Shown here piece after piece: positions 706-45,427 of a DNA stretch of 52,666 bases. The position numbers and the translations under genes were made by a program. The notes under the pieces are model-generated. The model was not told the DNA's origin and did no database searches. It saw only the letters and a list, made by a program, of their open reading frames with translations. Source of the DNA: Patescibacteria group bacterium (GTDB lineage Bacteria; Patescibacteriota; Minisyncoccia; Phycocordibacterales; VMEP01); NCBI GenBank assembly GCA_038064715.1, contig JBBTSJ010000037.1, positions 1-52,666 of the forward strand, in the 5' to 3' direction. Each line of letters starts with the position of its first letter. Within the stretch, counting starts at the first letter, position 1.

Positions 706-1833
706 ATGTCAAAATTAGCAAATTTAATAAATATTAAAAAGGTCGCTGCTCCGTTAGGAGCGATGCCATTTTCTACTACCGGGATGAAAAAAATACTAAT
801 TTTAGGAGTCAATGGTTTTATCGGGCACCACCTCTCAAAGAGAATTTTGGAAAAAACCGAGTGGGAAATTTGGGGGCTTGACCGCGAGAGAGACCGCGTT
901 AAACCTTTTCTCAAAAACAAGCGATTCCATTTTCATAAAGGGGATATAACCAAAGACTTGTCTTGGATTAAAAATGCCATTAAAAAATGCGACGTTGTTT
1001 TGCCCCTTGTCGCGATTGCGACCCCGATGAGCTATGTTAAGGAGCCGTTGAAAACATTTGAGCTTGATTTTGAAGCCAATTTGCCTATTGTGCGCATGGT
1101 GGCCAACCACAAGAAGCGCCTCTTGTTTCCGTCAACCTCCGAAGTTTACGGTATGAGCGCCGACCGTTATTTCCACCCTTATGAATCGAATCTCGTTTTA
1201 GGCCCGATTGATAGAGAGCGTTGGATATACTCCGCTTCAAAGCAACTGATGGACCGCGTCATTTGGGCTTTGGGCCATGAAAGGGGACTTGATTTTACGC
1301 TCTTTCGTCCCTTCAACTGGATTGGTTCGGGACTCGACCGGCTGTCCGAGAAAAAAGAAGGCGGGTCCCGCGTGATAACTCAATTTTTGGGAAACATGGT
1401 GCGGGGGGAGCCGATAAAACTGGTTGACGGCGGGCGGCAGAAAAGGTCGTTTACTTATATTGATGACGGTATTGACGCCCTCATGAAAATTATTGAGAAC
1501 AAAAACGGAATTGCCAGCGGTAAAATTTATAATATTGGCAATCCGGAAAATAATTGGTCCATAAAGCGGTTGGCGAAAGAAATGAGAAGTGTCGCTCTAT
1601 GTTATCCGGAATACAAAAAACAGGCGAAGAAGTGCAAAATTATTGTTTCGAGTATTGAGCATTTCTACGGCAAGGGATATCAGGATGTAAAAAACCGGGT
1701 TCCGTATATAGGCAACACGACGAAAGAACTGGGATGGAAGCCCAAAGTTTCCATGGAGACGGCATTAAGGCGAATAATGATTGCTTATCGCAGCGAAGTT
1801 AAAGAAGCTCAAAAATTAGTTGATGTGAAATAA
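706..1833 (+). CDS. UDP-glucuronate oxidative decarboxylase of the ArnA C-terminal-domain type (extended SDR)
   Basis: Near-collinear motif agreement with my memory of the E. coli ArnA dehydrogenase domain: GVNGFIGHHL, CDVVLPLVAIATP, FPSTSEVYGM, RWIYSASKQLMDRVIWA, FTLFRPFNW, YGKGYQDV. The Rossmann fold begins at MKKILILG, so ATG 784 is an alternative start. Confidence 0.88.
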   Translation: MSKLANLINIKKVAAPLGAMPFSTTGMKKILILGVNGFIGHHLSKRILEKTEWEIWGLDRERDRVKPFLKNKRFHFHKGDITKDLSWIKNAIKKCDVVLPLVAIATPMSYVKEPLKTFELDFEANLPIVRMVANHKKRLLFPSTSEVYGMSADRYFHPYESNLVLGPIDRERWIYSASKQLMDRVIWALGHERGLDFTLFRPFNWIGSGLDRLSEKKEGGSRVITQFLGNMVRGEPIKLVDGGRQKRSFTYIDDGIDALMKIIENKNGIASGKIYNIGNPENNWSIKRLAKEMRSVALCYPEYKKQAKKCKIIVSSIEHFYGKGYQDVKNRVPYIGNTTKELGWKPKVSMETALRRIMIAYRSEVKEAQKLVDVK

Positions 1834-1838
1834 ATAAC

Positions 1839-3023
1839 ATGGCTAAAAGAATACTTTTTTTCTCCCTGACATATTATCCGTTTATCGGAGGAGCGGAGGT
1901 GGCTATAAAAGAAGTTACCGACAGGATATCGTTGGCCGATTACAGTTTTGACATGATAACGCTCCGTTTTGATTCCGCGCTTCCCAAGTTTGAACGTTTC
2001 GGCAACGTAGATATTTTCCGCATTGGTTTTGGATATCCCGGCGCCAAGATACAGAATTTCAATAAATTTCCCTTATTTATTATGAAGTATTTATATCCGT
2101 TTTGGGCGCTCGCCTACGCAGTTATTTTGCACAGAAGGAAGCCTTATGACGCGATATCGACAATAATGACCGGATACGCTTCCTTTGCGGCGCTTTTCTT
2201 TAAATTTTTGTTTCCGAAAGTTCCGTATATTGTCCGCTTGGACGACGGCGACCCGTTCGAACATTACAGGGAAAAAGCGAGAATCACAGGACCGCTTTTC
2301 AAACAACTTTTTACAAAAGCCGACTTCGCCGTGTCTACCTCGACTTATCTGTCCGGGATGGCAAGAGAAATGGGATACAAAGGTGAGATAGCGATTGTTC
2401 CAAACGGAGTAAATACCGAACATTTTTCGCAAGTATATTCAAAAGAAGAACTGGACGCGCTCAAAGAGAAACTGGGCAAAAAGGATGGTGACATATATTT
2501 GGTTACCACTTCGCGTCTTGTGAAAAAGAACGCTTGTGACGATGTTGTTCGCGCATTACCGTTTTTATCGGACAATGTTAAGTTTTTGATTTTGGGCGTG
2601 GGGCCGGACGAGGGAATGTTGCGGGAACTTGCCGGTAACCTTAAGGTTGTCGGCAGAGTGATATTCCTCGGACAGATAGGTCACGCCGAGATGCCGAAAT
2701 ATTTGAAAATATCGGACGTTTATATTCGACCCTCGCTTTCGGAAGGATTCGGCATCGTGTTTGTTGAGGCTATGGTGGCGGGACTACCTGTCATCACGAC
2801 TCCCGTCGGTGGCATTACGGATTTTTTGATTGACAGAGAGACGGGGTTGTTTTGCGAAGTTCGGAATCCCGCGAGCATTGCCCAAAAAGTTAATCTGCTT
2901 ATCTCGAAGGCTTCTCTCAGAGAACATATAATAAAAGAAGGCGCGCGCATGGCCCGCGAGCGGTATGACTGGAACTTGGTCGCTAAGATGATGAAAGAAA
3001 AAGTTTTTGACAAAGTATTATGA
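1839..3023 (+). CDS. Glycosyltransferase, GT4-like (GT-B)
   Basis: C-terminal EX7E-type motif: SLSEGFGIVFVEAMVAGLPVITTPVGGITDFL. Confidence 0.9.
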   Translation: MAKRILFFSLTYYPFIGGAEVAIKEVTDRISLADYSFDMITLRFDSALPKFERFGNVDIFRIGFGYPGAKIQNFNKFPLFIMKYLYPFWALAYAVILHRRKPYDAISTIMTGYASFAALFFKFLFPKVPYIVRLDDGDPFEHYREKARITGPLFKQLFTKADFAVSTSTYLSGMAREMGYKGEIAIVPNGVNTEHFSQVYSKEELDALKEKLGKKDGDIYLVTTSRLVKKNACDDVVRALPFLSDNVKFLILGVGPDEGMLRELAGNLKVVGRVIFLGQIGHAEMPKYLKISDVYIRPSLSEGFGIVFVEAMVAGLPVITTPVGGITDFLIDRETGLFCEVRNPASIAQKVNLLISKASLREHIIKEGARMARERYDWNLVAKMMKEKVFDKVL

Positions 3024-3067
3024 AAGTGCTACTGCCTTTTTAGTTTGAAAGACCTACGCGGAGCCCC

Positions 3068-3566: not shown

Positions 3567-3582
3567 AACCTTTAGCACCCAA

Positions 3583-3705: not shown

Positions 3706-4659
3706 ATGAAAATCCTTGTTACAGGCGTTGCCGGAGCGATAGGTTCGCATGTCGCGGAAAGACTTGCTCAAATGGGACATGATGTCGTAGGGGTTGATTC
3801 CCTGACGGATTACTACCATCGCGCGATCAAAGAAACAAACCTTTCCGACGTTAGAGAAAGCGGCGTAAAAGTTTTTTTGAGCGATCTCTCCGTGGATGAT
3901 ATTTCGGAAACCATGCCAGACATAGAGGTTATATATCATTTTGCCGCGCAGCCCGGTATTTCCGCCTCCACGGGTTTTGACCTTTACATAAAAAACAACA
4001 TAATAGCGACCCACCGTCTTCTTGAGAAAGCTATGGAACTTTCCGCGCTTAAGGTATTTGTTCATATATCAACCTCTTCCGTATATGGCGCGAGAGCGCA
4101 AGGTGACGAAACCACCGAACCAAAACCCACTTCCTATTATGGAGTAACAAAACTCGCGGCGGAGCAACTGGCTATGTCTTACCACAGGGAACTTAATCTT
4201 CCGGTTACGGTGCTTAGGCTGTTTTCGGTATACGGAGAGCGCGAGAGGCCGGAAAAGCTGTATCACAAACTTATAAAAAGCATTCTTGAAGAAAAAACAT
4301 TCCCGCTTCACGAGGGAAGCGAGCATCACATTAGAAGCTATACGCACATTGAAGATATTGTGGACGCGTGTGTTTTGGTGCTTGATAATTTTGATAAGGC
4401 CATCGGAGAAATTTTTAACATAGGAAACGATAAGACAATCACGACCGGCGAAGGCATAAGCGTCCTGGAAGAAATTCTCGGGAAGAAAGCGAATTTGGTT
4501 ATTATGCCAAGAAGAACCGGAGACCAGACGGAAACAGCGGCCAATATTAAAAAAGCCAGAGAAATATTCGGTTATAATCCCAAAATAAACATTTCGGAAG
4601 GCTTGTCTCGGCAGGTTAAATGGCACAAAGACAAGCTGCACAATAAAATTGAATATTAA
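3706..4659 (+). CDS. NAD-dependent sugar-nucleotide epimerase/dehydratase (extended SDR)
   Basis: N-terminal GVAGAIGSH Rossmann motif, catalytic YYGVTKLAAE (YxxxK), ~317 aa. Confidence 0.88.
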   Translation: MKILVTGVAGAIGSHVAERLAQMGHDVVGVDSLTDYYHRAIKETNLSDVRESGVKVFLSDLSVDDISETMPDIEVIYHFAAQPGISASTGFDLYIKNNIIATHRLLEKAMELSALKVFVHISTSSVYGARAQGDETTEPKPTSYYGVTKLAAEQLAMSYHRELNLPVTVLRLFSVYGERERPEKLYHKLIKSILEEKTFPLHEGSEHHIRSYTHIEDIVDACVLVLDNFDKAIGEIFNIGNDKTITTGEGISVLEEILGKKANLVIMPRRTGDQTETAANIKKAREIFGYNPKINISEGLSRQVKWHKDKLHNKIEY

Positions 4660-5816: not shown

Positions 5817-5837
5817 CTAAACGCTAAACGCTAAATG
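5817..5837 (+). repeat. Heptanucleotide tract (ctaaacg) x3
   Basis: ctaaacg ctaaacg ctaaatg. The last unit contains the ATG at 5835. Confidence 0.8.
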
Positions 5838-7007
5838 CTTATGAAAGTCCTGATGATTTCAACCGACAGTAAAATATTGGATAGTGGGAGCGCGGTTAGG
5901 ACGCGGATGGTTTGGTATGGCGCCTCTTGCGAGGAGTTGCATATTATTGTCACGAAACACGAATCACGAAACACCCCGAGTAGCAGAGCAAAGCTCGCTA
6001 CGGGGCAGGCGAAACACGAAACAAAAATACAAGTTGCGGAAAATGTTTTTGCATATCCCGCAACCGCGTCAAATAAAATTCTCGCGCTATTCCGCGCATA
6101 CCATATTGGTGTCTCAACTTTCAACTTTCAACTTTCAACTTTCAACTGGTTGGTGACTTCCCAAGATCCTTTTGAAACCGGATTTATCGGCTGGCTTATT
6201 GCCAAAAAAATAAAAGCTAAATTGCAGCTCCAAGTTCACACGGATTTTCTAAGCCCGTATTTTATTAATGGAGATTTTTTAAATAGAATCCGTATTTTAT
6301 TGGCGCGCTTTCTTTTGCCCAAAGCCGACAGTATCCGCGTCGTTTCTCGTCGTATTGCGGATTCTCTAAACGCTAAACGCTATACGCTCAACGCTGTGCC
6401 AAAAATTTTGCCCATTTTCGTTGATATAGAGAAAATCCGCGGAACAGCTCCGACAATTGATTTGCGCAAAAAATATCCGCAATTTGATTTTCTGGTTCTT
6501 ACGACGTCGCGACTGACCCGCGAAAAAAATATTGAATTAGCAATTGAAGCCATGCGCGAAGTGGCAAAAAAATATCCGCGCGCCGGGTTGATCATTGTCG
6601 GTTCCGGTCCGGAGAAGTCTAACTTAAAACTAAAAACTGAAAACTTAAAACTTGCCGACAACGTCATTTTTGAAGAATGGTCAGACGACATCGTTTCATA
6701 CATGAAAACCGCGGATGTATTTTTGAACACTTCAAACTACGAAGGATTCGGCATGTCGCTTGTGGAAGCGGCCGCCTCCGGTTGCCCGATTGTTTCTACC
6801 GACGTCGGTATTGTTGGCGACATTCTTCGCCCGGAAGATGTTTTGGTTTGCTCGGCTCCCGACGCCGGTTGCATTTCGGACCAATTGAAGCGTATTATAC
6901 GTTTCCCGGAGCTACGCAGAGAACTTTCTCTAAAGGCCCAAACTTCAATCGAGGCGCTTGTAACAAGCAAAGAAGAGTATTTACTCAAGATAGGCGAATC
7001 GTGGTGA
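5835..7007 (+). CDS. Glycosyltransferase, GT4-like, carrying several heptanucleotide tracts
   Basis: NYEGFGMSLVEAAASGCPIVSTDVG motif. N-terminus MKVLMISTD suggests ATG 5841 as an alternative start. Confidence 0.85.
   Translation: MLMKVLMISTDSKILDSGSAVRTRMVWYGASCEELHIIVTKHESRNTPSSRAKLATGQAKHETKIQVAENVFAYPATASNKILALFRAYHIGVSTFNFQLSTFNWLVTSQDPFETGFIGWLIAKKIKAKLQLQVHTDFLSPYFINGDFLNRIRILLARFLLPKADSIRVVSRRIADSLNAKRYTLNAVPKILPIFVDIEKIRGTAPTIDLRKKYPQFDFLVLTTSRLTREKNIELAIEAMREVAKKYPRAGLIIVGSGPEKSNLKLKTENLKLADNVIFEEWSDDIVSYMKTADVFLNTSNYEGFGMSLVEAAASGCPIVSTDVGIVGDILRPEDVLVCSAPDAGCISDQLKRIIRFPELRRELSLKAQTSIEALVTSKEEYLLKIGESW
5951..5974 (+). repeat. Heptanucleotide tract (cacgaaa) x3.4, inside the CDS
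   Basis: cacgaaa cacgaat cacgaaa cac. Related gaaacac gaaacaa recurs at 6011-6024. Confidence 0.8.
5974..6005 (+). repeat. Imperfect palindrome (13-bp stem) embedded in-frame in the GT gene
   Basis: ccccg(ag)tagc(a)gagc aaa gctc gcta cgggg, flanked on both sides by cacgaaa-type direct repeats. Confidence 0.7.
6114..6148 (+). repeat. Heptanucleotide tract (tcaactt) x5, inside the CDS
   Basis: Four perfect tcaactt units plus tcaactg. Encodes STFNFQLSTFN. Confidence 0.85.
6366..6393 (+). repeat. Heptanucleotide tract (ctaaacg-type) x4, inside the CDS
   Basis: ctaaacg ctaaacg ctatacg ctcaacg, the same unit as at 5817-5837. Confidence 0.8.
6621..6655 (+). repeat. Heptanucleotide tract (aacttaa-type) x5, inside the CDS
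   Basis: aacttaa aactaaa aactgaa aacttaa aacttgc. Confidence 0.75.
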
Positions 7008-8087: not shown

Positions 8088-8927
8088 ATGCACAAAAAGA
8101 CAATCGGTTTTATCGGCCAAGGATATATAGGCAAAAATTATGCTGACGATTTTGAGAAGCGCGGCTATAATGTCGTGCGTTATGCGCTTGAAGAGCCACA
8201 TATTGGGAACAAGGAAAAAATATCAGAATGCGACATTGTTTTTATCGCTGTCCCAACCCCCACAACCCCCGAAGGATTTGATGATCGTATTGTAGAGGAA
8301 GCCATTCATCTCGTTGGTGTCGGGAATATTGCTGTGATTAAGTCCACCGTCCTTCCGGGCACTACGAAGAAACTTCAAAAGGCATATAGTGATGTTTTGG
8401 TATTAAATTCTCCCGAATTTCTTTCTGAAACCACCGCCGCGTATGATGCTGCTCATCCGACGCAAAACATTGTCGGTATTCCCGAGGACACAGCCTCACA
8501 CCGCAAAGCCGCAGAGCTTGTTTTATCAATTCTACCGGAAGCCCCGGCATCGCTTATATGCAAAAGTGTTGAATCAGAACTTTTCAAGTACGCGCATAAT
8601 ATGAGCGGCTATGTGCAAATTGTGCTGTTCAATATAATCTATGATTTGGCGCAAAATCTTGGCTGTGACTGGGAGCCTATTCAGAAAGCGGTTGAAGCGG
8701 ATCCCCTTATCTCTAACCGGTACGCGCGCCCAATTCACAAAAACGGGAGGGGTGCGGGGGGCCATTGCTTTATAAAAGATTTTGAGGCTTTTTCAAGCCT
8801 TTACCACAGTATGATTGCTGACCAGCTCGGGGACAAGGTTATGGCATCTTTGAGAGAGAAAAATATTGATTTGCTGAAAAAAAGCGGCAAAGATTTGGAT
8901 TTATTGAAAGAAGTCTATGGCGATTAG
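8088..8927 (+). CDS. UDP-glucose/GDP-mannose dehydrogenase-family protein, short form lacking the C-terminal UDP-binding domain
   Basis: IGFIGQGYIGKN dinucleotide fold. GAGGHCFIKD matches the catalytic GGxCxxKD motif. Only 279 aa, versus about 400 or more as I recall for canonical enzymes. Confidence 0.65.
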   Translation: MHKKTIGFIGQGYIGKNYADDFEKRGYNVVRYALEEPHIGNKEKISECDIVFIAVPTPTTPEGFDDRIVEEAIHLVGVGNIAVIKSTVLPGTTKKLQKAYSDVLVLNSPEFLSETTAAYDAAHPTQNIVGIPEDTASHRKAAELVLSILPEAPASLICKSVESELFKYAHNMSGYVQIVLFNIIYDLAQNLGCDWEPIQKAVEADPLISNRYARPIHKNGRGAGGHCFIKDFEAFSSLYHSMIADQLGDKVMASLREKNIDLLKKSGKDLDLLKEVYGD

Positions 8928-9957: not shown

Positions 9958-10092
9958 ACGGCATATTTGGTTCTAAGCGGTCGGAAAGCACGCGGATAAA
10001 TTTCCGAAAAAGATTGATTTTCAAACGGGTTTTTGTAACTACGATTCGAGTTTTAAGAAAGAGTATATTCCCGCTCTTTTAGACACACATTG

Positions 10093-22386: not shown

Positions 22387-22635
22387 ATGCAGGAAAATCA
22401 AATTTTTAAACAACTTTTCACCCGACTGCGAAACACTAAATTAGGGCAGCTTTTTTTTGACAAGAAGTTCGTTCATTACACATGGATAGGAATTTTTATT
22501 TCACTCCTCAACATATTCTTTCTATGGCTCCTGATAGATGTTGTCGGCATTTCCACGATAGTTTCGGGTACGCTCGTCGTTGGGGTAACCTTTATTCTGC
22601 GGTATGTCCTTTTTGATTCTTTCAAAATCTTATGA
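22387..22635 (+). CDS. Half-length GtrA-like 2-TM membrane protein
   Basis: 82 aa with two hydrophobic helices and an RYVLFDSF tail, resembling the first half of GtrA-family proteins. Confidence 0.45.
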   Translation: MQENQIFKQLFTRLRNTKLGQLFFDKKFVHYTWIGIFISLLNIFFLWLLIDVVGISTIVSGTLVVGVTFILRYVLFDSFKIL

Positions 22636-36096: not shown

Positions 36097-36139
36097 GAAC
36101 TCTTTCTTTACAGGTTTCCCGTTGTATACTAATCCGTAT

Positions 36140-36823: not shown

Positions 36824-37858
36824 TTAGCCGATGAGACCGGCCACGATTTTTTCCACCGCATTTTCGAACTTCGACGCGGAGAAATTGGCTTCTTGAGCGC
36901 GGAACATTCTCCGCAACACCTCGCTATCCGGCTTGAGGAGCAATCTCATTGCGAGCTCCAGGTCGACAGGCTCTTTGACGAGTTGCGAAGCTCCGAACCT
37001 TGTCGGTGGCCAGAAATCAAGGCCGCTCAGTTCCTCCCAAAACAGCTGGTCAATCGGATGAACCAAATCAATCACTGGCTTGCGCAAGCATGCCGCCATG
37101 ATTCCGACTGAGGAACCACCGGCCGCCACGACAAGGTCGCTGCCAGTGAGCATTTCCTGCGACGACAGCCCAATCTCACGTCCGGCAAACTGGACAGGAC
37201 AGCTGGCCCATTTCAGTATGCCGTCGTAGACATCCTTGCCGTGGTCGGCGCCGGGATGCATGGTGAGTACCATGTGAATTTTCTCGAGCTCACGCCCGGT
37301 CATCACCAGGTCGGTGTACAGAGCCACATTGCGTTCGAGCTCCTTGTTGCCGACGGCCAGAACCATTTTTTCATCCGGCTTGATGCCCAGCTTGCTACGG
37401 ACTTCCTTGCGACTTACCGTCGCTTTGAAGAACTCTGTCCAGTAGGGATTGCCGGAAGGGATAATCCTGGTGGTTGCATTCACGTACCGTCTGGCCGTTT
37501 CAACCTCCTGTTCATCGGTTACGAACAGTATGTCGGTTTTGGTCATGAGGTCCGTGAACCACGGGCGATGGTACATGCCGTAGATGTCCGAGAACACGGC
37601 GACAGGAACTCCCAATCGCTTGGCTTCCGTGAACGCATGTCTTTCCTCGAGTACTCTGTTCGTGGCCGAGGAGACGCTCATGAGCAGACGGTCTGCGCCG
37701 ATGAGAGCCACGCTAACCTTGTCGAGATTGCCGTCGGGAAGGGGTTTGCCCATTCCGAGGAACATCTCTACATTGTGCCCCAAGCTTTTGAGTTTCTCGC
37801 CGATAATCCGGAGAGAATTCCCCGGGCCGACGTCTTGCGTTACAATAACGATTTTCAC
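36824..37858 (-). CDS. GT-B/Rossmann-like protein of unknown specificity, GC-rich relative to its neighbours
   Basis: GTG 37858 lies 5 nt after GGAGG and gives MKIVIVTQD (the track starts at TTG 37888). The C-terminal DLVVAAGGSSVGIMAACLRKPVIDL resembles a nucleotide-sugar-binding GT-B motif. Confidence 0.55.
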   Translation of the reverse strand: MKIVIVTQDVGPGNSLRIIGEKLKSLGHNVEMFLGMGKPLPDGNLDKVSVALIGADRLLMSVSSATNRVLEERHAFTEAKRLGVPVAVFSDIYGMYHRPWFTDLMTKTDILFVTDEQEVETARRYVNATTRIIPSGNPYWTEFFKATVSRKEVRSKLGIKPDEKMVLAVGNKELERNVALYTDLVMTGRELEKIHMVLTMHPGADHGKDVYDGILKWASCPVQFAGREIGLSSQEMLTGSDLVVAAGGSSVGIMAACLRKPVIDLVHPIDQLFWEELSGLDFWPPTRFGASQLVKEPVDLELAMRLLLKPDSEVLRRMFRAQEANFSASKFENAVEKIVAGLIG

Positions 37859-37995
37859 TTTGACCTCCGTTGAGTGGTGAAAAATCAAAAAATCAAAAAA
37901 AGAAGAACAATCTAAACATCGTCCACTATTGTATACTATATCTTGTGTTTTGTCAATGGCTCGTAATGGCTTAAAAACTTAGTGTTTTTGGACAT

Positions 37996-39801
37996 ATGCA
38001 TTTTGAGTGGCGGATATATATGATAATATGTGCCAATATGAAAAATGAGTCGGTTTTAGTAATTTTTGGCGGAGATTTTCCGCCCAGTGGGATATTATCC
38101 AAGCGTCAACATGATGTCATAATTGCTGACGAGAAACTGCGGCAACATATTGAAGATACTGGTTTCAAATTCATTCCGATCGGACCGCTTATTGAGGCCG
38201 GTAGCATTCATGATGCAAGCGCTTTTCTCGAAGAACTTTCTTACTTGAAACTTGCTGATGGCTCACGTTTGGCAAAATCTTTTGAATATAAAGGCTATGA
38301 GTTGTGGTGGACGCATTATGACAGTCTTTTTATATACTTTTGCCTGCCTTATACGCAATATAAAAAATTGCTTGAGTACCTGAAAAGTTTTCGCGCGGTA
38401 TCTTTTTATAAGCCTCCTTTTATAAGCCTCTTCTCTTGTTACCTTAAAGCGCACGGATGCCAGGTCTCTCTCCTTCGCGGGTTGGGGGTAAATACGTCCT
38501 TGTCTCTTACATTTGGTATTTTTCTTCAAATTGCGCTCACCATCCTTTGCTTGCCGGTTTTAATGTTAAGGAACCGCCGCCTTATGATATTTATCGGCGA
38601 TAAATTTGAAAAATCTCAAGACTATGATTTTAGAACGAAATTCATTTACGAAGAGCTTCGGCGGAAAAACATTCCTTTTGTTGAGTTTATAAGAAGTTTA
38701 GGGTCTTGGAAAATAGTGTTGGAACATTTCTTTATAAGAAAACGGCCAGTTGTTTACTCCGAAGCGGTAGTTTTTATCGGACGAATTGCGAGCGTTATTT
38801 CAGGTGGAAGGCGCCGCGCTTTGCAGGAATTTGACTCTCGCACGTTTGCTTTGGGAAAAGACCCAGAGACGAAGTTTAAGCTTTTGGTTGCCACTCAATA
38901 TCTTCTTGGCGTGTATGACGACATATGGGCTATAAGAATTATGAAATGGATCTTACGCGCGGTTGGAATCAAGGTGTCTTTTATAGCAGCAACGTCAGAG
39001 CGTAATTTCCATACTGTTTTGGGCTGCAAATTAAATGGAATGCCGACAGTTGGCATTATGCATGGTGTCCAAATTCGGGACTACAATGTCTATGATTTCC
39101 TTCCCGGTTTTGATGGCGTTAAAAGGTTAACAGTCGATAAGTTCGGCCTCTGGAGCGAGTGGTGGAAAGAATATTATATCAAAAACAGTAAAGCATATGG
39201 CCGGGAGCAATTGTATGTGTCAGGCCCCATGAGACCGCTCTTGAAAAACAGTAACACCGAACCTGTCCCGGCGGAAACACCGGGTGGTATAACGCGCGTC
39301 CTGTTTGTTTCTGAAGAAATGGCTATACCAAGCGAAATATTACCTTACCTTAATGAATTATTGCGACAGAAGGATATGGAATTAACCATTAAGTTCCGTC
39401 CCACCAGAGATGGATTTGAAGAGTGGCTTTTGCAGAATGAACCGGCGATTCTGAAGAGCCAGAATTTAAAGATAGCTAAGGGGAATATGCAGGAGGCAAT
39501 TAGAAACACCGACGTGGCAGTGGGATGCCAAAGTACGGGTGTCATAGAGTCATTGCTTCAGCTTAAGACTCCCATTTATTTCCGGACACGGAAGTGGGGC
39601 GACTACTACAGTCTTAAAGAATATGACAAGAATCATTCCTTTTTTGCGGAAAGCCCGAAAGAGCTTATAGAAAAAATTAAAAACGCCCGGTCGGTGCCGA
39701 TAGAAGCCCTCGAAGATTTGCAAGAGAGATATTTCGGCGACCCGTACGAGAATGGAAGCAAATGGGTTGTTGAACAATTAGGAAAATGCATAACAGATTG
39801 A
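37996..39801 (+). CDS. Putative polysaccharide biosynthesis GT-B protein (Capsule_synth/KpsS-like or TagF-like C-terminal half)
   Basis: RVLFVSEE.., KFRPTRD, DVAVGCQSTGVIESLLQLKTPIYF resemble the ..NST.G.EAL..GkPV pattern. There is one central TM segment. ATG 38038 is an alternative start. Confidence 0.5.
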   Translation: MHFEWRIYMIICANMKNESVLVIFGGDFPPSGILSKRQHDVIIADEKLRQHIEDTGFKFIPIGPLIEAGSIHDASAFLEELSYLKLADGSRLAKSFEYKGYELWWTHYDSLFIYFCLPYTQYKKLLEYLKSFRAVSFYKPPFISLFSCYLKAHGCQVSLLRGLGVNTSLSLTFGIFLQIALTILCLPVLMLRNRRLMIFIGDKFEKSQDYDFRTKFIYEELRRKNIPFVEFIRSLGSWKIVLEHFFIRKRPVVYSEAVVFIGRIASVISGGRRRALQEFDSRTFALGKDPETKFKLLVATQYLLGVYDDIWAIRIMKWILRAVGIKVSFIAATSERNFHTVLGCKLNGMPTVGIMHGVQIRDYNVYDFLPGFDGVKRLTVDKFGLWSEWWKEYYIKNSKAYGREQLYVSGPMRPLLKNSNTEPVPAETPGGITRVLFVSEEMAIPSEILPYLNELLRQKDMELTIKFRPTRDGFEEWLLQNEPAILKSQNLKIAKGNMQEAIRNTDVAVGCQSTGVIESLLQLKTPIYFRTRKWGDYYSLKEYDKNHSFFAESPKELIEKIKNARSVPIEALEDLQERYFGDPYENGSKWVVEQLGKCITD

Positions 39802-41598
39802 TTAGTGTGTCTTGGTATCAGCTAATTTTGTAATTAAATAATTTTCTAAAACCAGATAATCCATTTTGGTGGCCAAAAATGTCCTTACAGCATCCTCTGG
39901 AGTTTCCACAATAGGCTCGCCGCCGAGATTAAAGGAAGTATTTAAAATTAAAGGCACTTGCGTCAGGCCGTAAAAATTTTTAACCAAATCATAATAACGG
40001 CCATTGACAGCCGGGGTGAGAGTTTGAATTCGACAAGTTCCATCAACATGAGTAACTGACGGGATTTTACCTTGCTTATCCTTTTTTACGTTAGCGGCTA
40101 GCATCATGAAGGGGCTCTTACCGTTGAATTCAAAAAAGTCGCCAACTTTTTCCTCCAATACCGAAGCGGCAAACGGCCGCCACGGCTCGCGATGCTTAAC
40201 TTTTAGATTCAACACATCTCTCATGTCGCTTCGTCTGGTATCGCACAAAATCGAACGATGTCCAAGAGCGCGCGGCCCGTATTCCGCGCCGCCGTAAAAC
40301 CAACCGATAATTTTACCCCCGGCTATTAAACCGGCAACTTCGGCGGCAATGTTTGAGGACTTGAAATAAACCAGTTGACCCGCTTTTTCCTTCAATGCCG
40401 TCAGAATTTCAGCTTCGGAATAGGAACGTCCCAATGAAGCGCTTTTCATTTCGTAAAATCGCGGCTGACCGGCAATAATGTGGCATCCATATAGCGCGAG
40501 ACCAAGAGGGATTCCCGCGTCTGATGAGGCGGGCTGGACGAAGATATTTTTAAAGCCAACCTCATCGAGGAAGTTCATGTTGGCGTCAATGTTGAGTCCG
40601 CAACCGCCCGCTACACAAAGATTTTGAGATCCGGTGATGTTTTTTAATTGATTTCCGAACAATATCGCCACCCTTTCGAATATTTTTTGAGCCGCATAGG
40701 CAAGAGAGGAGTAATAGACATCAGGCAGTTTTTCGTCTCCACGTTTCGGTTTTTCTAATTTGATTTCAGGAAAAATATCTACTTCAAAAGTCCCGTCCCT
40801 AGTAAGATGTTTTTGCATAAACCGGACCACAGGCCGCAAAAAAAGGGCTAATCGATGCTTGATCCGAGGCCTCATATTTTTGAGGTCGCGTATTCTGCGT
40901 GAAATTGGAGCCGCAGGATAGCTAATATTGCTATTACATAACACATGACTGTTGTATTCTCGGCACCACTCGTCATACGGATGCGCCCGCAAGACCGAAT
41001 CGTTTCCGTAGGAAGCCAGACCCATTAACTTCCCTTCATTGAGAAGGCCTAAATTACAATAGTCCGTGATGAGTGAGTACAGCTTACCGATGCCGAAGGT
41101 GTACGGGAAAAATCTATCCTCCCGCAGGTGAAGATTTTTTCTGATTTCATAGAGACGGTTGTTTCGTCCGGAATACAGCGTATCGGTTTCGGTTGCATAC
41201 ACGCCAAGATGAGTGGCGAATTTTTCCCCGGTACCGTCATAGACGAGCGTGGCAGCTTCACCAAATGGGGAACAAAAAAATGCTGAAGCGGCATGGGCAT
41301 CGTGATGGTTAATGACATGCGTCTTTGCTCGAGAAAAAACGCCATTGGTTTCCCTGTTAAAAATTTCCAATGGCCGCGTTTTGGAGCGCAGGTTAGTCTG
41401 ATCCATCAGCACCATATCGATATCGGCGGGTTTTAGGCCGAAATGATTCAAGCAGTAGTCGATGGATAGACGGGGAAACATATTCGACGAATGCTTAATC
41501 CGATTGAGCCGCTCTTCCGCAAGGGCCACCACGCGTTGGCCAGAGATTAGAGCTGCTCCGGTATTGTGACCCGTAACTTTAACGCCAAGAATATTCAT
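39802..41598 (-). CDS. NodU/CmcH-family carbamoyltransferase
   Basis: MNILGVKVTGHNTGAALISGQRVVALAEERLNRIKH, HHDAHAASAFF, and the YrdC/Kae1-like C-terminal part. ATG at 41598 (the track starts at TTG 41613). Confidence 0.9.
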   Translation of the reverse strand: MNILGVKVTGHNTGAALISGQRVVALAEERLNRIKHSSNMFPRLSIDYCLNHFGLKPADIDMVLMDQTNLRSKTRPLEIFNRETNGVFSRAKTHVINHHDAHAASAFFCSPFGEAATLVYDGTGEKFATHLGVYATETDTLYSGRNNRLYEIRKNLHLREDRFFPYTFGIGKLYSLITDYCNLGLLNEGKLMGLASYGNDSVLRAHPYDEWCREYNSHVLCNSNISYPAAPISRRIRDLKNMRPRIKHRLALFLRPVVRFMQKHLTRDGTFEVDIFPEIKLEKPKRGDEKLPDVYYSSLAYAAQKIFERVAILFGNQLKNITGSQNLCVAGGCGLNIDANMNFLDEVGFKNIFVQPASSDAGIPLGLALYGCHIIAGQPRFYEMKSASLGRSYSEAEILTALKEKAGQLVYFKSSNIAAEVAGLIAGGKIIGWFYGGAEYGPRALGHRSILCDTRRSDMRDVLNLKVKHREPWRPFAASVLEEKVGDFFEFNGKSPFMMLAANVKKDKQGKIPSVTHVDGTCRIQTLTPAVNGRYYDLVKNFYGLTQVPLILNTSFNLGGEPIVETPEDAVRTFLATKMDYLVLENYLITKLADTKTH

Positions 41599-41650
41599 AC
41601 CTTGAAGATACAACGAAAAATTATATTTGGAAACCCCATCCTATCCGTTA

Positions 41651-41713: not shown

Positions 41714-41721
41714 CATTGTAC

Positions 41722-42987: not shown

Positions 42988-43063
42988 GTATTTTCAAATA
43001 CTAATGTATACAACGGTTTTTTCCTAGTCATTGGTTACATTGTATAGTATAGTGGTAAATATT

Positions 43064-45427
43064 ATGAATTTGAATAAATTTTTACGGTACGCAATTTTTA
43101 TCGGCCTATTTGCTGTTCCGTTTATACCGCTCCTCGTGTCAAACTCGATGTTTTTCCCGTTTATCACGGGAAAAAATTTTGCTTTCAGGATTATTGTTGA
43201 AATTATCCATGCCGCTTGGGTGATTTTGGCGCTACGAGATTCTTTCTATCGGCCCAAGAAATCAATCATCCTTATTGCTTTTGCCACATTTATCGGGATA
43301 CTCGCTCTCGCCGATTTTTTTGGCGAGAACCCATACAGAAGTTTTTGGTCCAACTACGAGCGAATGGAAGGGCTTGTCGCGCACCTGCATTTGTTCGCGT
43401 ATTTTCTGGTTGCCACCGCGATGTTTTCCACGGAAAAATTATGGCAAAAATTTTTTTACACTTCGTTCGGCGTTAACACGGCCATTATTGGTTATAGTTT
43501 ATTTCAGCTCTCCGGCAAGCTCGCCATCAATCAAGGGGGGGTTCGCGTTGACGCCACTTTCGGCAACGCCACATATCTCGCGGCCTACGCGCTTTTTCAG
43601 GTTTTTCTCATTGCTTTTTATCTGATTCGCGAGAAAAATTTCTCGGACTCGTCAAGCGACAAAGCCGCCTTTGTCATTCTCGGAGCAAGTCTCGGAGCGT
43701 TTTTGGCGATGCCACCCGGATCTTCCGTTACCGCATACTTTTTGATTATTCTTTTGACCATTGCCGTAGACCTCGCCTTGTTTTTTGCCGTAACCGCACG
43801 AGGGAGCAAGCCGTTTTTGTGGGTGCTTTTAATCGCCAATCTTTTTGTTCTTTACAACACCGAAACAAGGGGGGCAATACTCGGGCTTATCGGCGGGGTG
43901 TTCATTTCCGCCACAATCTTGGCTGTAGGAAATTGGAAAAACGCGAAAGTTAGGAACACCGCTGTTTCCGCCATTGCCGCGCTCATGATTTTTGTCGGAC
44001 TGTTTGTGGCGTTTAAAGATTCTAAATTCATAAAAGAGAGAAGCACTCTTGCCAGATTTGCTTCCATTTCGCTTACCGAGCAGACGACCATTTCGCGATT
44101 CACCGTCTGGGATATGAGCTGGCAGGGATTCAAAGAGCATCCCGTTCTTGGCTGGGGACAGGATAACTTCATTGTTGTTTTCAGCAAATACTACAAGCCG
44201 GATATGTGGAATCAAGAACCGTGGTTTGACCGTTCCCACAACGTTTTCTTTGATTGGATGATAGCCGCGGGTCTTTTGGGCATTCTTGCTTACCTCGCGC
44301 TTTTTGGCGCTGGCCTGTATTCCTTGTGGAGAAGCTTGAAACTTTCTTTCGCCGAAAAAAGCGTTTTGACCGGGCTTTTGGCCGGATATTTTTTCCAAAA
44401 TCTTTTTGTTTTTGACAACCTGACGAGCTACATTATGTTTTTCTCCGTTTTGGGATTTATTTCTTTCGCTTCGGTAAACGACGGTGTCGCGGAAAAATCG
44501 GCCGAAAAACCGGCCAAAGCGCGGGAGCCGAAGAATGTCCCGCCCGAACCGGGCGGCGCGGGGTATTTTGGAGCGGCTATGGCTCTAATCATTCTTGTTC
44601 CTGTTTTGTATTTCGGAAATGTTAAGCCGATACTTGCTTCAAGGTATTTAATACAAGCGATAAGCGGGCAGGAAGAAGGTCCCGCGAAAAATCTTGAGTA
44701 CTTCAAAAATGTTTTCGCTTCAGGAACGTTCGGAGGCGGTGAAGCCCGCGAGCAACTGGTTCGCGCGACAATAAGTTTGCGCGGGGCCAATATCCCGGAT
44801 GAGTTTAAACAAGCTTTCTTCTCGCTCTCCAACGAACAAATGCTTGATCAAATCAAAATGGCCCCAACTGACGCCAGGTATGAACTTTATTTCGGGTTGC
44901 TTTTTGGTTCTTTTGGAAATTTTGACGAAGCCGCGAATCATTTGAAAAGAGCGCTGGAACTTTCTCCCAAAAAACAGCAGATTTTATTTGAGCTCGGTTC
45001 CGTTTATTTAAGCAAAGGGGATGTGAATACGGCCAACAAATATTTCAAAGAAGCTTACGACGAAGCCCCGAAGTATCCGGATGCCGCGATTACTTACGCC
45101 ACGGGATTGATTTATGCCGGACGGGTAGAGGAATCAGACGCCATTCTTATTTCATCTTTTGGAACAACGCTTGTGCCCGACAACCGCATCATCAGCGCTT
45201 ATTTTGTCAAAGGTATGCCCGGCCGAGTAATTGATATCCGCAAAAACCAACTCTTAAAATCGCCAAAAGACCAGCAAACGATGCTTGCCCTTGCCGCCGC
45301 TTATTTGAACGCGGGACAAAGGGAAAACACCATCAACGAATTAAATGAAATTATAAAAACATATCCTGGTTTTAAAGACCAAGGAGAATCTTTCATAAAA
45401 GAAATCCGCGCCGGCAGGAATCCTTGA
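43064..45427 (+). CDS. O-antigen ligase/polymerase-like (Wzy_C) membrane protein with C-terminal TPR repeats
   Basis: YNTETRGAILGLIGG loop motif within a polytopic region. The C-terminal part has TPR-like ..AANHLKRALELSPKKQQILFELGSVYLSKGDVNTANKYFKEA. ATG at 43064 (the track starts at TTG 43031). Confidence 0.85.
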   Translation: MNLNKFLRYAIFIGLFAVPFIPLLVSNSMFFPFITGKNFAFRIIVEIIHAAWVILALRDSFYRPKKSIILIAFATFIGILALADFFGENPYRSFWSNYERMEGLVAHLHLFAYFLVATAMFSTEKLWQKFFYTSFGVNTAIIGYSLFQLSGKLAINQGGVRVDATFGNATYLAAYALFQVFLIAFYLIREKNFSDSSSDKAAFVILGASLGAFLAMPPGSSVTAYFLIILLTIAVDLALFFAVTARGSKPFLWVLLIANLFVLYNTETRGAILGLIGGVFISATILAVGNWKNAKVRNTAVSAIAALMIFVGLFVAFKDSKFIKERSTLARFASISLTEQTTISRFTVWDMSWQGFKEHPVLGWGQDNFIVVFSKYYKPDMWNQEPWFDRSHNVFFDWMIAAGLLGILAYLALFGAGLYSLWRSLKLSFAEKSVLTGLLAGYFFQNLFVFDNLTSYIMFFSVLGFISFASVNDGVAEKSAEKPAKAREPKNVPPEPGGAGYFGAAMALIILVPVLYFGNVKPILASRYLIQAISGQEEGPAKNLEYFKNVFASGTFGGGEAREQLVRATISLRGANIPDEFKQAFFSLSNEQMLDQIKMAPTDARYELYFGLLFGSFGNFDEAANHLKRALELSPKKQQILFELGSVYLSKGDVNTANKYFKEAYDEAPKYPDAAITYATGLIYAGRVEESDAILISSFGTTLVPDNRIISAYFVKGMPGRVIDIRKNQLLKSPKDQQTMLALAAAYLNAGQRENTINELNEIIKTYPGFKDQGESFIKEIRAGRNP

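Follow-up and report, generated by a model that had tools for sequence, protein, structure and literature searches.

Results

The window, a stretch of 52,666 nucleotides, carries between positions 706 and 45,427 a block of glycan genes (Table 1), whose domains were called by Pfam and NCBIfam profile searches and two structure predictions (AlphaFold/AF2 models compared by Foldseek); nearly every call of an earlier domain inventory was reproduced in this way. There are, as the earlier note had counted, 13 Leloir glycosyltransferases: eight of GT1/GT4 type (above the PF00534 cut-off at 1839, 4683, 5835, 8917, 10090 (N-terminal part), 14246, 17767 and 30804), one GT9 and two GT2 recovered by Pfam, and two orphan GT-B folds recovered by AlphaFold and Foldseek. 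Thirty-one consecutive genes lie on the plus strand if the 82-aa ORF at 22387-22635 is included, and six ATGA overlaps were located (at 15887, 16837, 20036, 22632, 25979 and 30804), so that the co-directional run of about 31 genes and the six or more junctions claimed before both hold; together they indicate an operon organisation. Repeat-filled intergenic gaps of 220-340 bp lie between blocks.

Table 1. Genes and other features of the glycan locus (window coordinates; G001, same-genus genome)
Position	Strand	Feature	Evidence
706..1833	+	UDP-glucuronate decarboxylase-type SDR (bifunctional UDP-4-keto-pentose/UDP-xylose synthase, ArnA C-domain-like)	NF008872 576.5 bits, cut-off 294; Pfam Epimerase
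1839..3023	+	GT4-type glycosyltransferase, conserved 5' module	PF00534 128 bits
3024..3705	.	682-bp stretch, no convincing ORF	absent from G001, where both GT4 genes abut
3706..4659	+	NAD-dependent sugar epimerase/dehydratase (SDR)	PF01370 173 bits
4683..5786	+	GT4-type glycosyltransferase	PF00534 146.6 bits; 66% identity in G001
5835..7007	+	GT4-type glycosyltransferase	PF00534 118.5 bits
7064..8071	+	NDP-sugar 4,6-dehydratase/epimerase-type SDR	PF16363 192 bits; 68% identity in G001
8088..8927	+	Short (279 aa) nucleotide-sugar dehydrogenase (Ugd) homologue without C-terminal UDP-binding domain	PF03721 and PF00984 only
8917..9957	+	GT1-family glycosyltransferase, last of conserved 5' module	PF00534 59.8 bits; 54% identity in G001
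10090..12165	+	Glycosyltransferase fused to FkbM-family methyltransferase	PF00534 67.4 bits, PF05050 56.4 bits
12408..14234	+	AsnB-type glutamine amidotransferase	PF00733 246 bits; TIGR01536 451 bits, cut-off 267
14246..15331	+	Divergent GT1-family glycosyltransferase	PF00534 weak, 29.5 bits, cut-off 26.4
15318..15890	+	Class I SAM methyltransferase	PF13489 67.6 bits; motif I ILELGCGS
15887..16840 (also called from 15863)	+	Class I SAM methyltransferase, ATGA-coupled	PF08241 56.8 bits; motif I VLDAGAGLG
16837..17757	+	APH/choline-kinase-like small-molecule kinase candidate, ATGA-coupled	PF01636 29.6 bits, cut-off 23.2
17767..18882	+	GT1-family glycosyltransferase	PF00534 69.7 bits
18819..20039	+	GT9 (heptosyltransferase family) glycosyltransferase	PF01075 67.3 bits, cut-off 22; 44% identity in G001
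20036..20491	+	GtrA-family small membrane protein	PF04138 72.5 bits
20466..21395	+	Zinc-ribbon + class I SAM methyltransferase	PF13489 94.2 bits; motif I VCDIGCGD
21619..22383	+	TylF-type (macrocin O-methyltransferase family) methyltransferase	PF05711 78.9 bits, cut-off 23
22387..22635	+	Hydrophobic ORF, 82 aa, half-size GtrA-like	ORF listing
22632..23258	+	Class I SAM methyltransferase, ATGA-coupled	PF13489 78.6 bits
23255..24217	+	GT2 polyprenyl-phosphate glycosyltransferase candidate (ArnC/GtrB/PgfS-like), two C-terminal TM helices	PF00535 107.9 bits; TM prediction
24240..25982	+	Polytopic membrane protein (at least 9 TM segments + soluble tail), candidate extracytoplasmic GT-C-like transferase	TM prediction
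25979..28030	+	Polytopic membrane protein (~14 TM segments + tail), candidate GT-C-like transferase, small family	TM prediction
28085..28789	+	Soluble GT2 glycosyltransferase	PF00535 84 bits; 83% identity in G003
29131..30807	+	RmlD-like 4-ketoreductase fused to class I SAM methyltransferase	PF04321 180.5 bits, PF08241 84.8 bits
30804..32057	+	GT4 glycosyltransferase, first gene of recurrent KdsB cassette	PF00534 135.8 bits
32320..33117	+	KdsB-like CMP-ulosonic-acid cytidylyltransferase	PF02348 160 bits
33104..35308	+	Gfo/Idh/MocA-like oxidoreductase + Cys4 ribbon + methyltransferase-fold domain, degenerate motif I	PF13489 39 bits; PF01408 E 0.002
35452..36096	+	HAD-IA sugar-phosphate phosphatase candidate	PF13419 118 bits; under all NCBIfam equivalog cut-offs
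36122..36727	+	GmhA-like SIS_2 sugar-phosphate isomerase	PF13580 79 bits; TIGR00441 193.8 bits, under 209.45 cut-off
36824..37888	-	Orphan GT-B-fold glycosyltransferase, 344-354 aa	AF2 pLDDT 91.3; Foldseek
37996..39801	+	GT-B-fold protein, ~590 aa, no Pfam family	AF2 pLDDT 86.5; Foldseek
39802..41613	-	NodU/CmcH-type carbamoyltransferase	PF16861 222 bits, PF02543 135 bits
41722..42987	-	Wzx-type flippase, conserved 3' module	PF01943 65.6 bits
43031..45427	+	WaaL-like Wzy_C membrane domain + C-terminal TPR domain	PF04932 74.3 bits, cut-off 31.7; TPR matches

In the 5' module the decarboxylase-type SDR is 72% identical to its G001 counterpart, the GT4 at 1839 82% (76% in G004) and the Ugd homologue, equally short there, 88%; the latter scores 126.9 bits with TIGR03026, under the 189.8 cut-off, and the SDR at 7064 falls under all NCBIfam equivalog cut-offs. 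The SDR at 3706 is an insertion relative to G001, whose closest match is 35% identical, and a 165-aa minus-strand ORF in the 682-bp stretch before it has no Pfam match. Four 7-nt tandem tracts (5951, 6114, 6366 and 6621; TRF) lie within the GT4 gene at 5835.

The FkbM domain of the fusion at 10090 is also recognised by TIGR01444 (85.8 bits, cut-off 37.7). The AsnB-type amidotransferase proposed at 12408 is confirmed and, because the genome has no other asparagine synthase homologue (this is its sole Asn_synthase match over the Pfam cut-off), may have a housekeeping role. An independent gene call (L041, 382 aa) starts the GT9 gene at 18891, and the GT2 at 23255 scores 137 bits with NF007986 and 124 bits with PgfS, each under its cut-off. 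The two membrane proteins at 24240 and 25979, previously read as GT-C-like, are indeed polytopic (9 and 14 predicted TM segments) and are tandem distant paralogues (hhalign 92.9%), but their GT-C assignment is a candidate one, on weak and indirect grounds: the former has no Pfam match save a weak one to Acyl_transf_3 (E 0.009) and the latter none, while its family comprises 155 representatives among 1.84 billion proteins, with PF10060 (DUF2298) matched by 4 of 32 distant relatives. In L037 an 88-aa gene with a weak PF04138 match, a possible homologue, occupies the position that corresponds to the 82-aa ORF.

Eight SAM-methyltransferase domains had been claimed. Seven exceed Pfam cut-offs and have a canonical SAM loop (the FkbM C-terminus of 10090, 15318, 15863/15887, 20466, 21619, 22632 and the C-terminus of 29131), but the C-terminal domain of 33104-35308 lacks the SAM-binding glycine loop. 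Since its glycine-rich motif I reads LDFMPK, invariant in all ten members of this rare family (nine homologues among 5.8 billion proteins), we count seven canonical domains and one degenerate, which is unlikely to bind SAM in the conventional manner. The reductase part of 29131 scores 189.7 bits with TIGR01214, under the 224 cut-off, and the protein is 86% identical in G003; for 15318 the syntenic contigs of four relatives carry no homologue. The supposedly unusual methyltransferase load is only partly borne out: the host genome has nine strong PF13489 matches and a typical relative roughly three, but the congener has ten, seven of them in a syntenic locus whose methyltransferase number equals that of the host locus. 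Glycosyltransferase numbers are typical of the order (estimated median of ~8 GT1-family matches per genome in 40 relatives). The APH-type kinase reported at 16837 does pass its PF01636 cut-off, but the match is partial, spanning the catalytic-loop region alone, which makes the call a weak one; no significant relative was found among solved structures.

The KdsB-like protein at 32320, which passes NF009905 (256 bits, cut-off 255) and TIGR00466 (160.6 bits, cut-off 155.2), is the sole sugar nucleotidyltransferase homologue and sole cytidylyltransferase found genome-wide, and its gene adjoins the GT4 at 30804 in L036, L037 and L039. The genome was searched for LpxC, WaaA and any lipid A pathway marker, and none was found. 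Nor did it yield a sugar-1-phosphate nucleotidyltransferase (PF00483, PF01704, and PF12804, which the KdsB-like gene alone matches), so that the activated sugars needed by 13 glycosyltransferases have no evident source. Two aspects are new: a rare KdsB-like cassette predicted to operate in the absence of KdsA, WaaA and the genes for lipid A, and a genome in which profile searches detect no sugar-1-phosphate nucleotidyltransferase. The orphan GT-B protein at 36824, without a match in Pfam, NCBIfam and PDB sequence searches, resembles BshA/MshA-type GT4 enzymes by Foldseek (E 4.5e-11, TM 0.65) and has nine homologues, at least two on contigs that also carry 33104 homologues. That at 37996 matches UDP-GlcNAc 2-epimerases, GT-B glycosyltransferases and MurG (Foldseek E 1e-8); its more than 400 homologues share 53-83% identity, and the named ones are all hypothetical proteins, exclusively from Patescibacteria or unclassified-bacterium MAGs.

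At the 3' end, both N and C domains of the expected NodU-type carbamoyltransferase were found by Pfam, and the gene has the same position in L039. The Wzx-like flippase (60% identity in G001, 33% in G007) and the O-antigen-ligase-like/TPR protein (64% and 45%) were likewise recovered; the latter, the single Wzy_C protein of the genome, matches 7tpg, a polymerase/ligase of solved structure (E 1.5e-5). No LCP ligase was found in the genome. Because neither a separate Wzy polymerase nor a chain-length regulator was identified, the product may be either a polymer or a single long oligosaccharide. The one Bac_transf phosphoglycosyltransferase of the genome (WbaP/PglC-type), with an adjoining GT4, is not in the window but on contig C23, which is homologous to 17.9-26.4 kb of G001 contig C1; the syntenic locus occupies 43.7-76.9 kb of that contig, placing the congener's phosphoglycosyltransferase about 17 kb upstream of it.

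The host, a CPR bacterium of the Paceibacteria type, has a genome of 682 kb (97% complete), and its relatives bear the name Candidatus Paceibacterota, in agreement with the small CPR-like genome supposed earlier; the locus makes up 6.56% of the assembly. Its ends are conserved in the congener (54-88% identity in 706-9957, 60-64% in the Wzx and Wzy_C/TPR genes), the centre is 26-49% identical or missing, and counterparts of nine genes are lacking from the syntenic contigs of four relatives. In a same-family genome the same GAPDH/RpiB/Rpe/transketolase block flanks the locus.

That several loci were joined in a chimeric or contaminated assembly could be suspected from the splitting of the MAG over 84 contigs and from the windows at 32.5-40 kb, whose tetranucleotide distance (0.196-0.198) is just over the 95th percentile (0.192). 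However, the genes of 7064-28789 stand in identical order on an independent 28.7-kb contig obtained from a different sample. Two 184-kb contigs of a close relative, each assembled independently, keep the order from 23255 to 43031, bar a swapped sub-cassette after the 734-aa gene, and a single G001 contig is collinear with both ends of the locus. The composition is homogeneous, GC content is 43.7% against 44.6% for the genome, and contamination is 0.59%. Chimerism thus has next to no likelihood and is effectively refuted already, and a single contiguous glycan locus is supported. The collinear independent assemblies come from groundwater.

Discussion

As judged from its genes, the 45-kb cluster is a genuine one, devoted to a heavily decorated sugar chain of the cell surface, with O-methyl, carbamoyl, amide and phosphate groups as its reasonably predicted chemistry. 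We consider it, on balance, probable that it serves this bacterium as the main locus for biosynthesis of its cell-surface glycan, with the conserved ends and exchanged centre that it has in common with O-antigen and capsule loci. Such clusters are normal for Patescibacteria (CPR), and just a few sub-modules are unusual.

The order of the steps, their substrates, the acceptor and a single product for all genes are what we infer from the domain identities, folds, synteny and genome-wide counts observed. The single phosphoglycosyltransferase on C23 would start a polyprenyl-phosphate-linked oligosaccharide. The GT4, GT9, GT2 and orphan GT-B enzymes would extend it on the cytoplasmic side of the membrane, and its tailoring would fall to seven SAM methyltransferases (one of them part of a glycosyltransferase fusion, another of a reductase fusion), the carbamoyltransferase, the amidotransferase and the kinase-like protein, with the KdsB-like cassette supplying an acidic CMP-activated sugar. 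Wzx would then flip the chain, and the WaaL-like Wzy_C+TPR protein would transfer it en bloc, or polymerise it, onto a non-LPS acceptor (protein, lipid or wall), while the module of GtrA, polyprenyl-P GT2 and tandem polytopic proteins may attach side sugars on the outer side of the membrane.

O-antigen repeat units typically have 3-6 sugars, and 13 glycosyltransferases far exceed such needs. One possible, though unlikely, reading is general protein O-glycosylation, in which the Wzy_C+TPR protein, as a PglL/PilO/WsaB-like oligosaccharyltransferase, would place one long, non-repeating, heavily tailored oligosaccharide from the lipid carrier on pilins or S-layer/surface proteins and no polysaccharide would be built. 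The lone Wzy_C protein, with no second polymerase-like protein or LCP ligase beside it, the missing lipid A marker and the TPR domain, a protein-interaction module, are in line with this, as is a report (PMC8080830) that type IV pili and surface proteins abound on CPR surfaces; but among solved structures the membrane domain is closest to a WaaL-type polymerase/ligase, not to a PglL, and no protein acceptor was identified. TPR-bearing Wzy_C proteins are, to our knowledge, uncharacterised, which also tells against it. That the 45 kb instead comprise several neighbouring modules, each with a product of its own (the GT4/UDP-xylose-type 5' module, a Gtr/Arn-like lipid-carrier decoration module at 20036-28789 and the KdsB-type acidic-sugar cassette at 30804-39801) seems doubtful: the parts vary independently among relatives, G003 keeping 28085 and 29131 (83-86%) without most others on that contig, the KdsB cassette turns up as a block with differing neighbours in L036, L037 and L039, and the repeat-filled gaps fall between blocks, yet the whole genome has one Wzx, one Wzy_C protein and one initiating transferase, the genes run co-directionally, and single-product O-antigen loci likewise evolve by modular exchange.

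It is also conceivable, though improbable, that part of the methyltransferase load is not for sugar O-methylation, the overlapping trio 15318/15887/16837 (N-methyltransferases and an ethanolamine/choline-type kinase) making a phosphocholine-like decoration. The best solved relatives of 15887 are plant phosphoethanolamine N-methyltransferases (E 5.6e-7) and 16837 resembles Choline_kinase weakly (Pfam E 0.0028, PDB E 0.23), but the former match covers the generic SAM-binding region alone, the kinase evidence is under significance, and in the locus Pfam finds no enzyme of LicC or LicD type for activation or transfer.

Some observations bear on the main reading as such. Counting against it are the failure to find a sugar-1-phosphate nucleotidyltransferase, a separate Wzy polymerase or a chain-length regulator, the Ugd homologue without its UDP-binding domain, the weak GT-C assignment of 24240/25979 and the degenerate methyltransferase-fold domain of 33104. 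For it speak the genome's only Wzy_C protein, its only cytidylyltransferase, eight of its nine PF00534 (GT1-family) matches and both PF00535 (GT2) matches, all of which sit in the glycan locus.

A variable surface-glycan locus in a very small genome

Variable Wzx/Wzy_C-type loci for surface glycans are the norm in this lineage, and the present locus is one of them; its weight lies on a KdsB cassette, on missing sugar-activation genes and on orphan transferase families, not on its size or its methyltransferase count. The window is one entire contig (C37), the longest of an 84-contig, 682,114-bp assembly (97.1% complete, 0.59% contaminated), with a GC content of 43.7% for the window and 44.6% for the genome. 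The nearest relatives in the genome collection (42–82% identity to one GT4 glycosyltransferase of the locus) are MAGs that bear the names Candidatus Paceibacterota, other Patescibacteria lineages or 'Patescibacteria group'; several come from groundwater, and all of the 40 nearest genomes measure 0.4–1.1 Mb. The host therefore belongs, as the earlier note had supposed, to the CPR bacteria, and its genome is very small. An identical stretch is present in assemblies of groundwater from Hainich well H43. As a fraction of the assembly, the locus (44.7 kb) amounts to 6.56%.

The claim that these genes form one contiguous locus is borne out by contigs assembled independently. On a 28.7-kb contig assembled separately, from another sample, gene order is identical for 7064–28789, and two independently assembled 184-kb contigs of one relative, whose homologue of the 734-aa protein encoded at 33104 is 94% identical, keep the same order from the GT2 gene at 23255 to the Wzy_C gene, except for a sub-cassette swapped after the 734-aa gene. 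Both ends of the locus lie on one 76.9-kb contig of the same-genus genome G001, and tetranucleotide distances in 5-kb windows are all within the genome's own range, with just 32.5–40 kb marginally above the 95th percentile. On these grounds (collinear independent contigs, synteny in G001, composition) a chimeric assembly is rejected. Rfam and tRNA scans of the window returned no match.

Features of the locus and its surroundings (genes named by start coordinate; bit scores against cut-offs where both are given)
Feature	Position	Family evidence or remark
Glycan locus	706–45427
Conserved 5' module	706–9957
UDP-GlcA decarboxylase, ArnA-C-domain-like	706	NF008872 576 bits
GT1/GT4-type domains	1839, 4683, 5835, 8917, 10090, 14246, 17767, 30804	Pfam
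Stretch of 682 bp	3024–3705
SDR gene	3706–4659
Candidate phase-variable GT4 gene	5835–7007	intact
Four 7-nt tandem tracts	5951–6653	TRF, 3.4–4.9 copies each
Ugd homologue	8088–8927	279 aa
Methyltransferase domains	10090 C-terminus, 15318, 15887, 20466, 21619, 22632, 29131 C-terminus	family HMM cut-off and motif I
GT9	18819	67.3 vs 22
GT2	23255	PF00535 107.9 bits; C-terminal TM segments at 237 and 273
GT2	28085	Pfam
GtrA-family protein		PF04138 72.5 bits
Polytopic proteins, plausibly GT-C-like	24240, 25979	9 and 14 predicted TM segments
85-bp repeat unit	28785–29025	2.8 copies, 91% matches
KdsB-like gene	32320–33117	NF009905 256 vs 255 bits; TIGR00466 160.6 vs 155.2
Fusion protein gene	33104–35308(+)	734 aa
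Orphan GT-B-like gene	36824–37888(-)	model pLDDT 91.3
Orphan GT-B-like gene	37996–39801	model pLDDT 86.5
Wzx	41722–42987(-)	PF01943 65.6 vs 28.2 bits
Wzy_C/TPR protein		PF04932 74.3 vs 31.7 bits; 12 predicted TM segments
Split transketolase	48675–50972
Bac_transf, another contig (C23)	match C23:5034–5576, ORF C23:4248–5594	PF02397 183.8 bits
Wzx–Wzy_C/TPR spacer cargo, relatives	L039/L040 19814–20679; L037 19907–21556

Conserved ends and an exchangeable centre

All window proteins were compared by tblastn with the syntenic contigs of G001 and of three further relatives (G003, G004 and G007, the last from the same family), and across the four the ends of the locus are conserved and the centre variable. 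The 5' module is 54–88% identical in G001, and so is the 3' pair conserved, with Wzx 60% identical in G001 and the Wzy_C/TPR protein 64% in G001 and 45% in G007. The centre is 26–49% identical or missing in the relatives, and for nine genes none of the four syntenic contigs has a counterpart: 33104, 36824, the methyltransferase genes 15318 and 15863, and the genes for the kinase-like, KdsB-like and GmhA-like proteins, the HAD phosphatase and the carbamoyltransferase. Conserved ends around an exchangeable centre are the pattern of O-antigen and capsule loci. In G007 the locus adjoins the same GAPDH/RpiB/Rpe/transketolase block as here. Within that block, two genes encode the N- and C-terminal parts of transketolase, and between them lies a 126-aa gene of the '23S rRNA intervening sequence protein' family (PF05635, 93.9 bits). 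The G007 transketolase is likewise split, some 450 bp separating the matches to its two halves (78% and 70% identical), and the PF05635 gene finds its best match there elsewhere on the contig.

CPR bacteria are generally regarded as living attached to other microbes, and to our knowledge next to nothing is known of their surface chemistry. Here, about 36 genes of a 0.68-Mb genome are given over to what is probably one decorated glycan, and the centre of the locus is swapped between congeners as in serotype loci. This swapping points to selection on the surface glycan by phages or hosts, in line with PMC9426551. An elaborate, glycosyltransferase-rich surface is described as a common theme among CPR bacteria (PMC8080830; PMC12911398); a paper on Hainich Parcubacteria (PMC11188291) holds nothing on glycans.

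Export, ligation and the likely product

The genome has a single match to the initiating polyprenyl-phosphate phosphoglycosyltransferase family (Bac_transf), on another contig, where the gene adjoins a ninth GT1-family gene; in G001 the homologous segment is carried by the contig that also bears the locus, about 17 kb upstream of it. The genome has no Wzy_C-family member besides the Wzy_C/TPR protein, whose membrane domain resembles the solved WaaL-type ligase 7tpg (E 1.5e-5). No LCP ligase, LpxC (PF03331) or WaaA (PF04413) was found in the 97%-complete genome, and with LpxC and WaaA not found the glycan would not be an LPS O-antigen linked to a lipid A core. On this architecture, with its sole phosphoglycosyltransferase, its sole Wzy_C/TPR protein bearing a WaaL-like domain and no LCP ligase, LpxC or WaaA, we favour a reading in which a lipid-linked heteroglycan would be flipped by Wzx and handed by the Wzy_C/TPR protein to a non-LPS acceptor, while a Gtr-like decoration may be added outside the membrane. 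A serious alternative is that the product is a long non-repeating oligosaccharide, possibly protein-linked; both the number of transferases and the fact that no second polymerase-like protein was found in the genome speak for it.

The decoration proposed for the Wzx-flipped heteroglycan draws on a Gtr/Arn-type feature of the locus, namely a GtrA-family protein together with a polyprenyl-phosphate GT2 (23255) that has C-terminal TM helices and is matched by both the ArnC and the PgfS models below cut-off (ArnC 137 vs 529 bits). The likeness to Arn and Gtr modules extends to the decarboxylase at 706 and to the arrangement in which large polytopic proteins lie directly downstream of the ArnC/GtrB-like GT2 and the GtrA-family protein; unlike the Arn system, there is no ArnB aminotransferase, formyltransferase or deformylase here, nor a lipid A target. 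The two polytopic proteins (24240 and 25979) have no family match, and no GT-C Pfam family hits them directly. They are distant paralogues (hhalign 92.9%, E 3.8e-7, 340 columns), and the family of 25979 is small (155 representatives among 1.84 billion proteins), with 4 of 32 distant members matching DUF2298, which we take to be a member of the GT-C clan; a literature search on DUF2298 gave nothing useful. Of their description as GT-C-like membrane proteins in the earlier note, the membrane character is upheld, and the GT-C nature is plausible. In the spacer between Wzx and the Wzy_C/TPR gene, close relatives carry cargo. One has a toxin-antitoxin pair of AbiEii type; another has a bifunctional ATP-sulfurylase/APS-kinase for PAPS synthesis, which hints at sulfation of the glycan.

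Two known systems invite comparison. Gram-negative Wzx/Wzy O-antigen and capsule clusters (enterobacterial rfb/cps) resemble the locus in their co-directional GT4 and GT2 genes, nucleotide-sugar SDRs, Wzx and Wzy_C-family protein, in their conserved flanks, exchangeable centre and accessory tailoring genes, and in having the initiating phosphoglycosyltransferase encoded away from the variable block. However, the locus differs from them: (i) no genes for LpxC (lipid A) or WaaA were found here; (ii) there are 13 glycosyltransferases rather than 3–6; (iii) the Wzy_C protein has a TPR domain; and (iv) NDP-sugar pyrophosphorylase genes were not found in this genome. A likeness may also lie in the slg clusters for the S-layer glycoprotein glycans of Gram-positive Bacillaceae (Geobacillus stearothermophilus, Aneurinibacillus thermoaerophilus), which serve a monoderm host, in which the Wzy_C-type WsaB moves a lipid-linked glycan to protein, WsaE (a methyltransferase fused to GT domains, comparable with the GT-FkbM fusion at 10090) caps the chain by O-methylation, and heptose is used in Aneurinibacillus (GmhA). 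These clusters export by ABC transporter and carry their own rml/gmh nucleotide-sugar genes, whereas the locus carries a Wzx but neither transporter genes nor, beyond the KdsB-like gene, activating enzymes.

Thirteen glycosyltransferases and two orphan families

Pfam assigns eight GT1/GT4-type domains, one GT9 and two GT2. Two further genes, 37996 and 36824, had no match in Pfam, NCBIfam or PDB sequences and were modelled from alignments of their homologues: the 37996 model matches GT-B enzymes (UDP-GlcNAc 2-epimerases, GT1/GT4, MurG; E ~1e-8) and the 36824 model GT4 enzymes including BshA and MshA (E 4.5e-11, TM 0.65). There are thus 13 Leloir-type transferases, the number first proposed, 11 of them by Pfam and two, previously listed as unassigned GT-B-like, by predicted structure. 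For these two and for 33104, single-sequence and profile searches of solved structures gave nothing past generic Rossmann and methyltransferase matches; Pfam searches of the unassigned proteins at E up to 10 gave faint leads only.

The locus yields in this way two uncharacterised GT-B families. That of 37996 has more than 400 members (~590 aa, 53–83% identity), the named ones all coming from MAGs of Patescibacteria lineages or unclassified bacteria, where they are annotated as hypothetical. Just two of these named members have a Pfam family: one has PF27859, and one of 978 aa has GT4 Pfam matches, presumably a fused GT4 domain. Across 40 relatives, PF00534 matches range from 0 to 13 per genome, with a typical count, as read off the table of genomes, of about 8; the count here is 9, of which eight lie in the locus. 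The 7-nt tracts inside the GT4 gene at 5835 make it a candidate for phase variation, since gain or loss of a single unit would put it out of frame. Upstream, the stretch at 3024 holds no credible ORF, Rfam match or tRNA, and together with the adjacent SDR gene it is an insertion relative to G001, in which the flanking GT4 genes adjoin.

Sugar activation and the KdsB cassette

No sugar nucleotidyltransferase homologue other than the KdsB-like gene was found in the genome. Apart from that gene, searches with PF00483 and PF12804 returned nothing in this 97%-complete genome, three congeners and four genomes of a neighbouring genus; PF00483 is present in 20 of 41 relatives. GT1-family matches number 7–9 in seven of the eight genomes (this one, congeners and sister genus) and 4 in one 88%-complete congener; PF00953 (MraY-type) also has a match in this genome. 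The search for PF01704 (UDPGP) was uninformative, control genomes also having no match. The nucleotide-sugar dehydrogenase (Ugd) homologue consists of the N-terminal and central domains alone, the UDP-binding domain at the C-terminus being absent; it has the same length and is 88% identical in G001, and is therefore not a recent pseudogene. With no sugar-1-phosphate nucleotidyltransferase found and a Ugd homologue of this kind, the donor supply for 13 glycosyltransferases is therefore unaccounted for, and we infer that nucleotide sugars may be taken up from a host. Candidates for parts of an NDP-heptose pathway are the GT9 and a GmhA-like protein (193.8 bits, below the cut-off of 209.45), and no PF00483 nucleotidyltransferase was found; a pfkB kinase nearby is closer to ribokinase than to RfaE.

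The KdsB-like gene, which passes the KdsB cut-offs narrowly, overlaps by 14 nt the gene for the 734-aa protein, in which a Gfo/Idh/MocA-like domain is joined to a Cys4 ribbon and a degenerate methyltransferase fold and which has nine homologues among 5.8 billion proteins. In the cassettes of relatives the order is GT4, KdsB-like gene, 730-aa protein, and then an Ldh_2-type 2-hydroxyacid dehydrogenase and an IMPase-family phosphatase, in place of which the window has a HAD phosphatase and a GmhA-like isomerase; on L036, alone among these relatives' contigs, a Pgl-like lactonase gene lies between the KdsB-like gene and the 730-aa protein. The orphan GT-B gene 36824 has a counterpart in one of three such contexts (L037) and 37996 in two (L037 and L039).

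Comparison with the CMP-Kdo pathway (KdsD-KdsA-KdsC-KdsB-WaaA) cuts both ways. Its likeness lies in a cytidylyltransferase at KdsB cut-offs with a SIS isomerase and a HAD phosphatase nearby. However, the SIS protein is GmhA-like and not KdsD-like, and the partners here are the Gfo/Idh/MocA fusion and, in relatives, the Ldh_2 dehydrogenase, the IMPase-family phosphatase and the L036 lactonase. Members of the KdsA/DAHP-synthase family (PF00793), NeuB and WaaA were not found in the genome, and among 151 genomes of the order CTP_transf_3 genes occur in 52 and the KdsA family in 9; of the strong KdsB-like carriers, just one has PF00793 as well. A literature search for kdsB with Patescibacteria gave nothing useful. 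The recurrent cassette comprises the GT4, the KdsB-like enzyme, the fusion protein and an orphan GT-B. We consider it improbable that these proteins synthesise a CMP-activated acidic keto-sugar, and transfer it, with no aldolase of the KdsA/NeuB type, by way of sugar phosphate, aldonate and 2-ulosonate, in a monoderm-like CPR cell with neither lipid A nor its own activation of ordinary sugars, hence with host-derived other nucleotide sugars; the aldolase-independent oxidative route to a 2-ulosonic acid is a speculative reading of ours. Two testable questions follow: which sugar is activated by the KdsB-like enzyme when KdsA, NeuB, WaaA and lipid A genes are missing, and what is the donor source for 13 glycosyltransferases in a lineage in which no sugar-1-phosphate nucleotidyltransferase is detected?

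Methyltransferases and other tailoring enzymes

Of the eight methyltransferase domains initially counted, seven pass their family HMM cut-off and have the glycine-rich SAM-binding motif I. The eighth, at the C-terminus of 33104, has a degenerate motif I, LDFMPK(F/Y) standing in place of LDxGxGxG in 10 of 10 known family members, and its HMM match is limited to profile positions 77–162, the distal half. Strong PF13489 matches number 9 in this genome, 6 of them within the locus; a typical relative has roughly 3, but the congener G001 has 10, with 7 in its syntenic locus, and two other genomes have 9–10. The locus, real and correctly described overall, is therefore less unusual than the earlier note held: its methyltransferase load is high but common to a congener.

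The AsnB, carbamoyltransferase, Wzx and Wzy_C plus TPR assignments are solid by Pfam, as is that of GtrA, and the six ATGA overlaps are present; the APH-type kinase has a Pfam match, though a partial one of 29.6 bits. A WbdD-like kinase-methyltransferase chain terminator formed by 15887 and 16837 is unsupported, no WbdD appearing among the solved-structure matches of either protein, and is also disfavoured by the finding of no ABC-transporter genes in the locus. The families known from Nod-factor and antibiotic sugar tailoring (NodU/CmcH carbamoyltransferase, TylF and FkbM O-methyltransferases) occur here above Pfam cut-offs; unlike in Nod and secondary-metabolite clusters, they are embedded in a lipid-linked surface-glycan locus, and the carbamoyltransferase scores 151 bits against the NodU equivalog cut-off of 1000. 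The 85-bp repeat fills most of the spacer between a GT2 gene and the RmlD-methyltransferase fusion.
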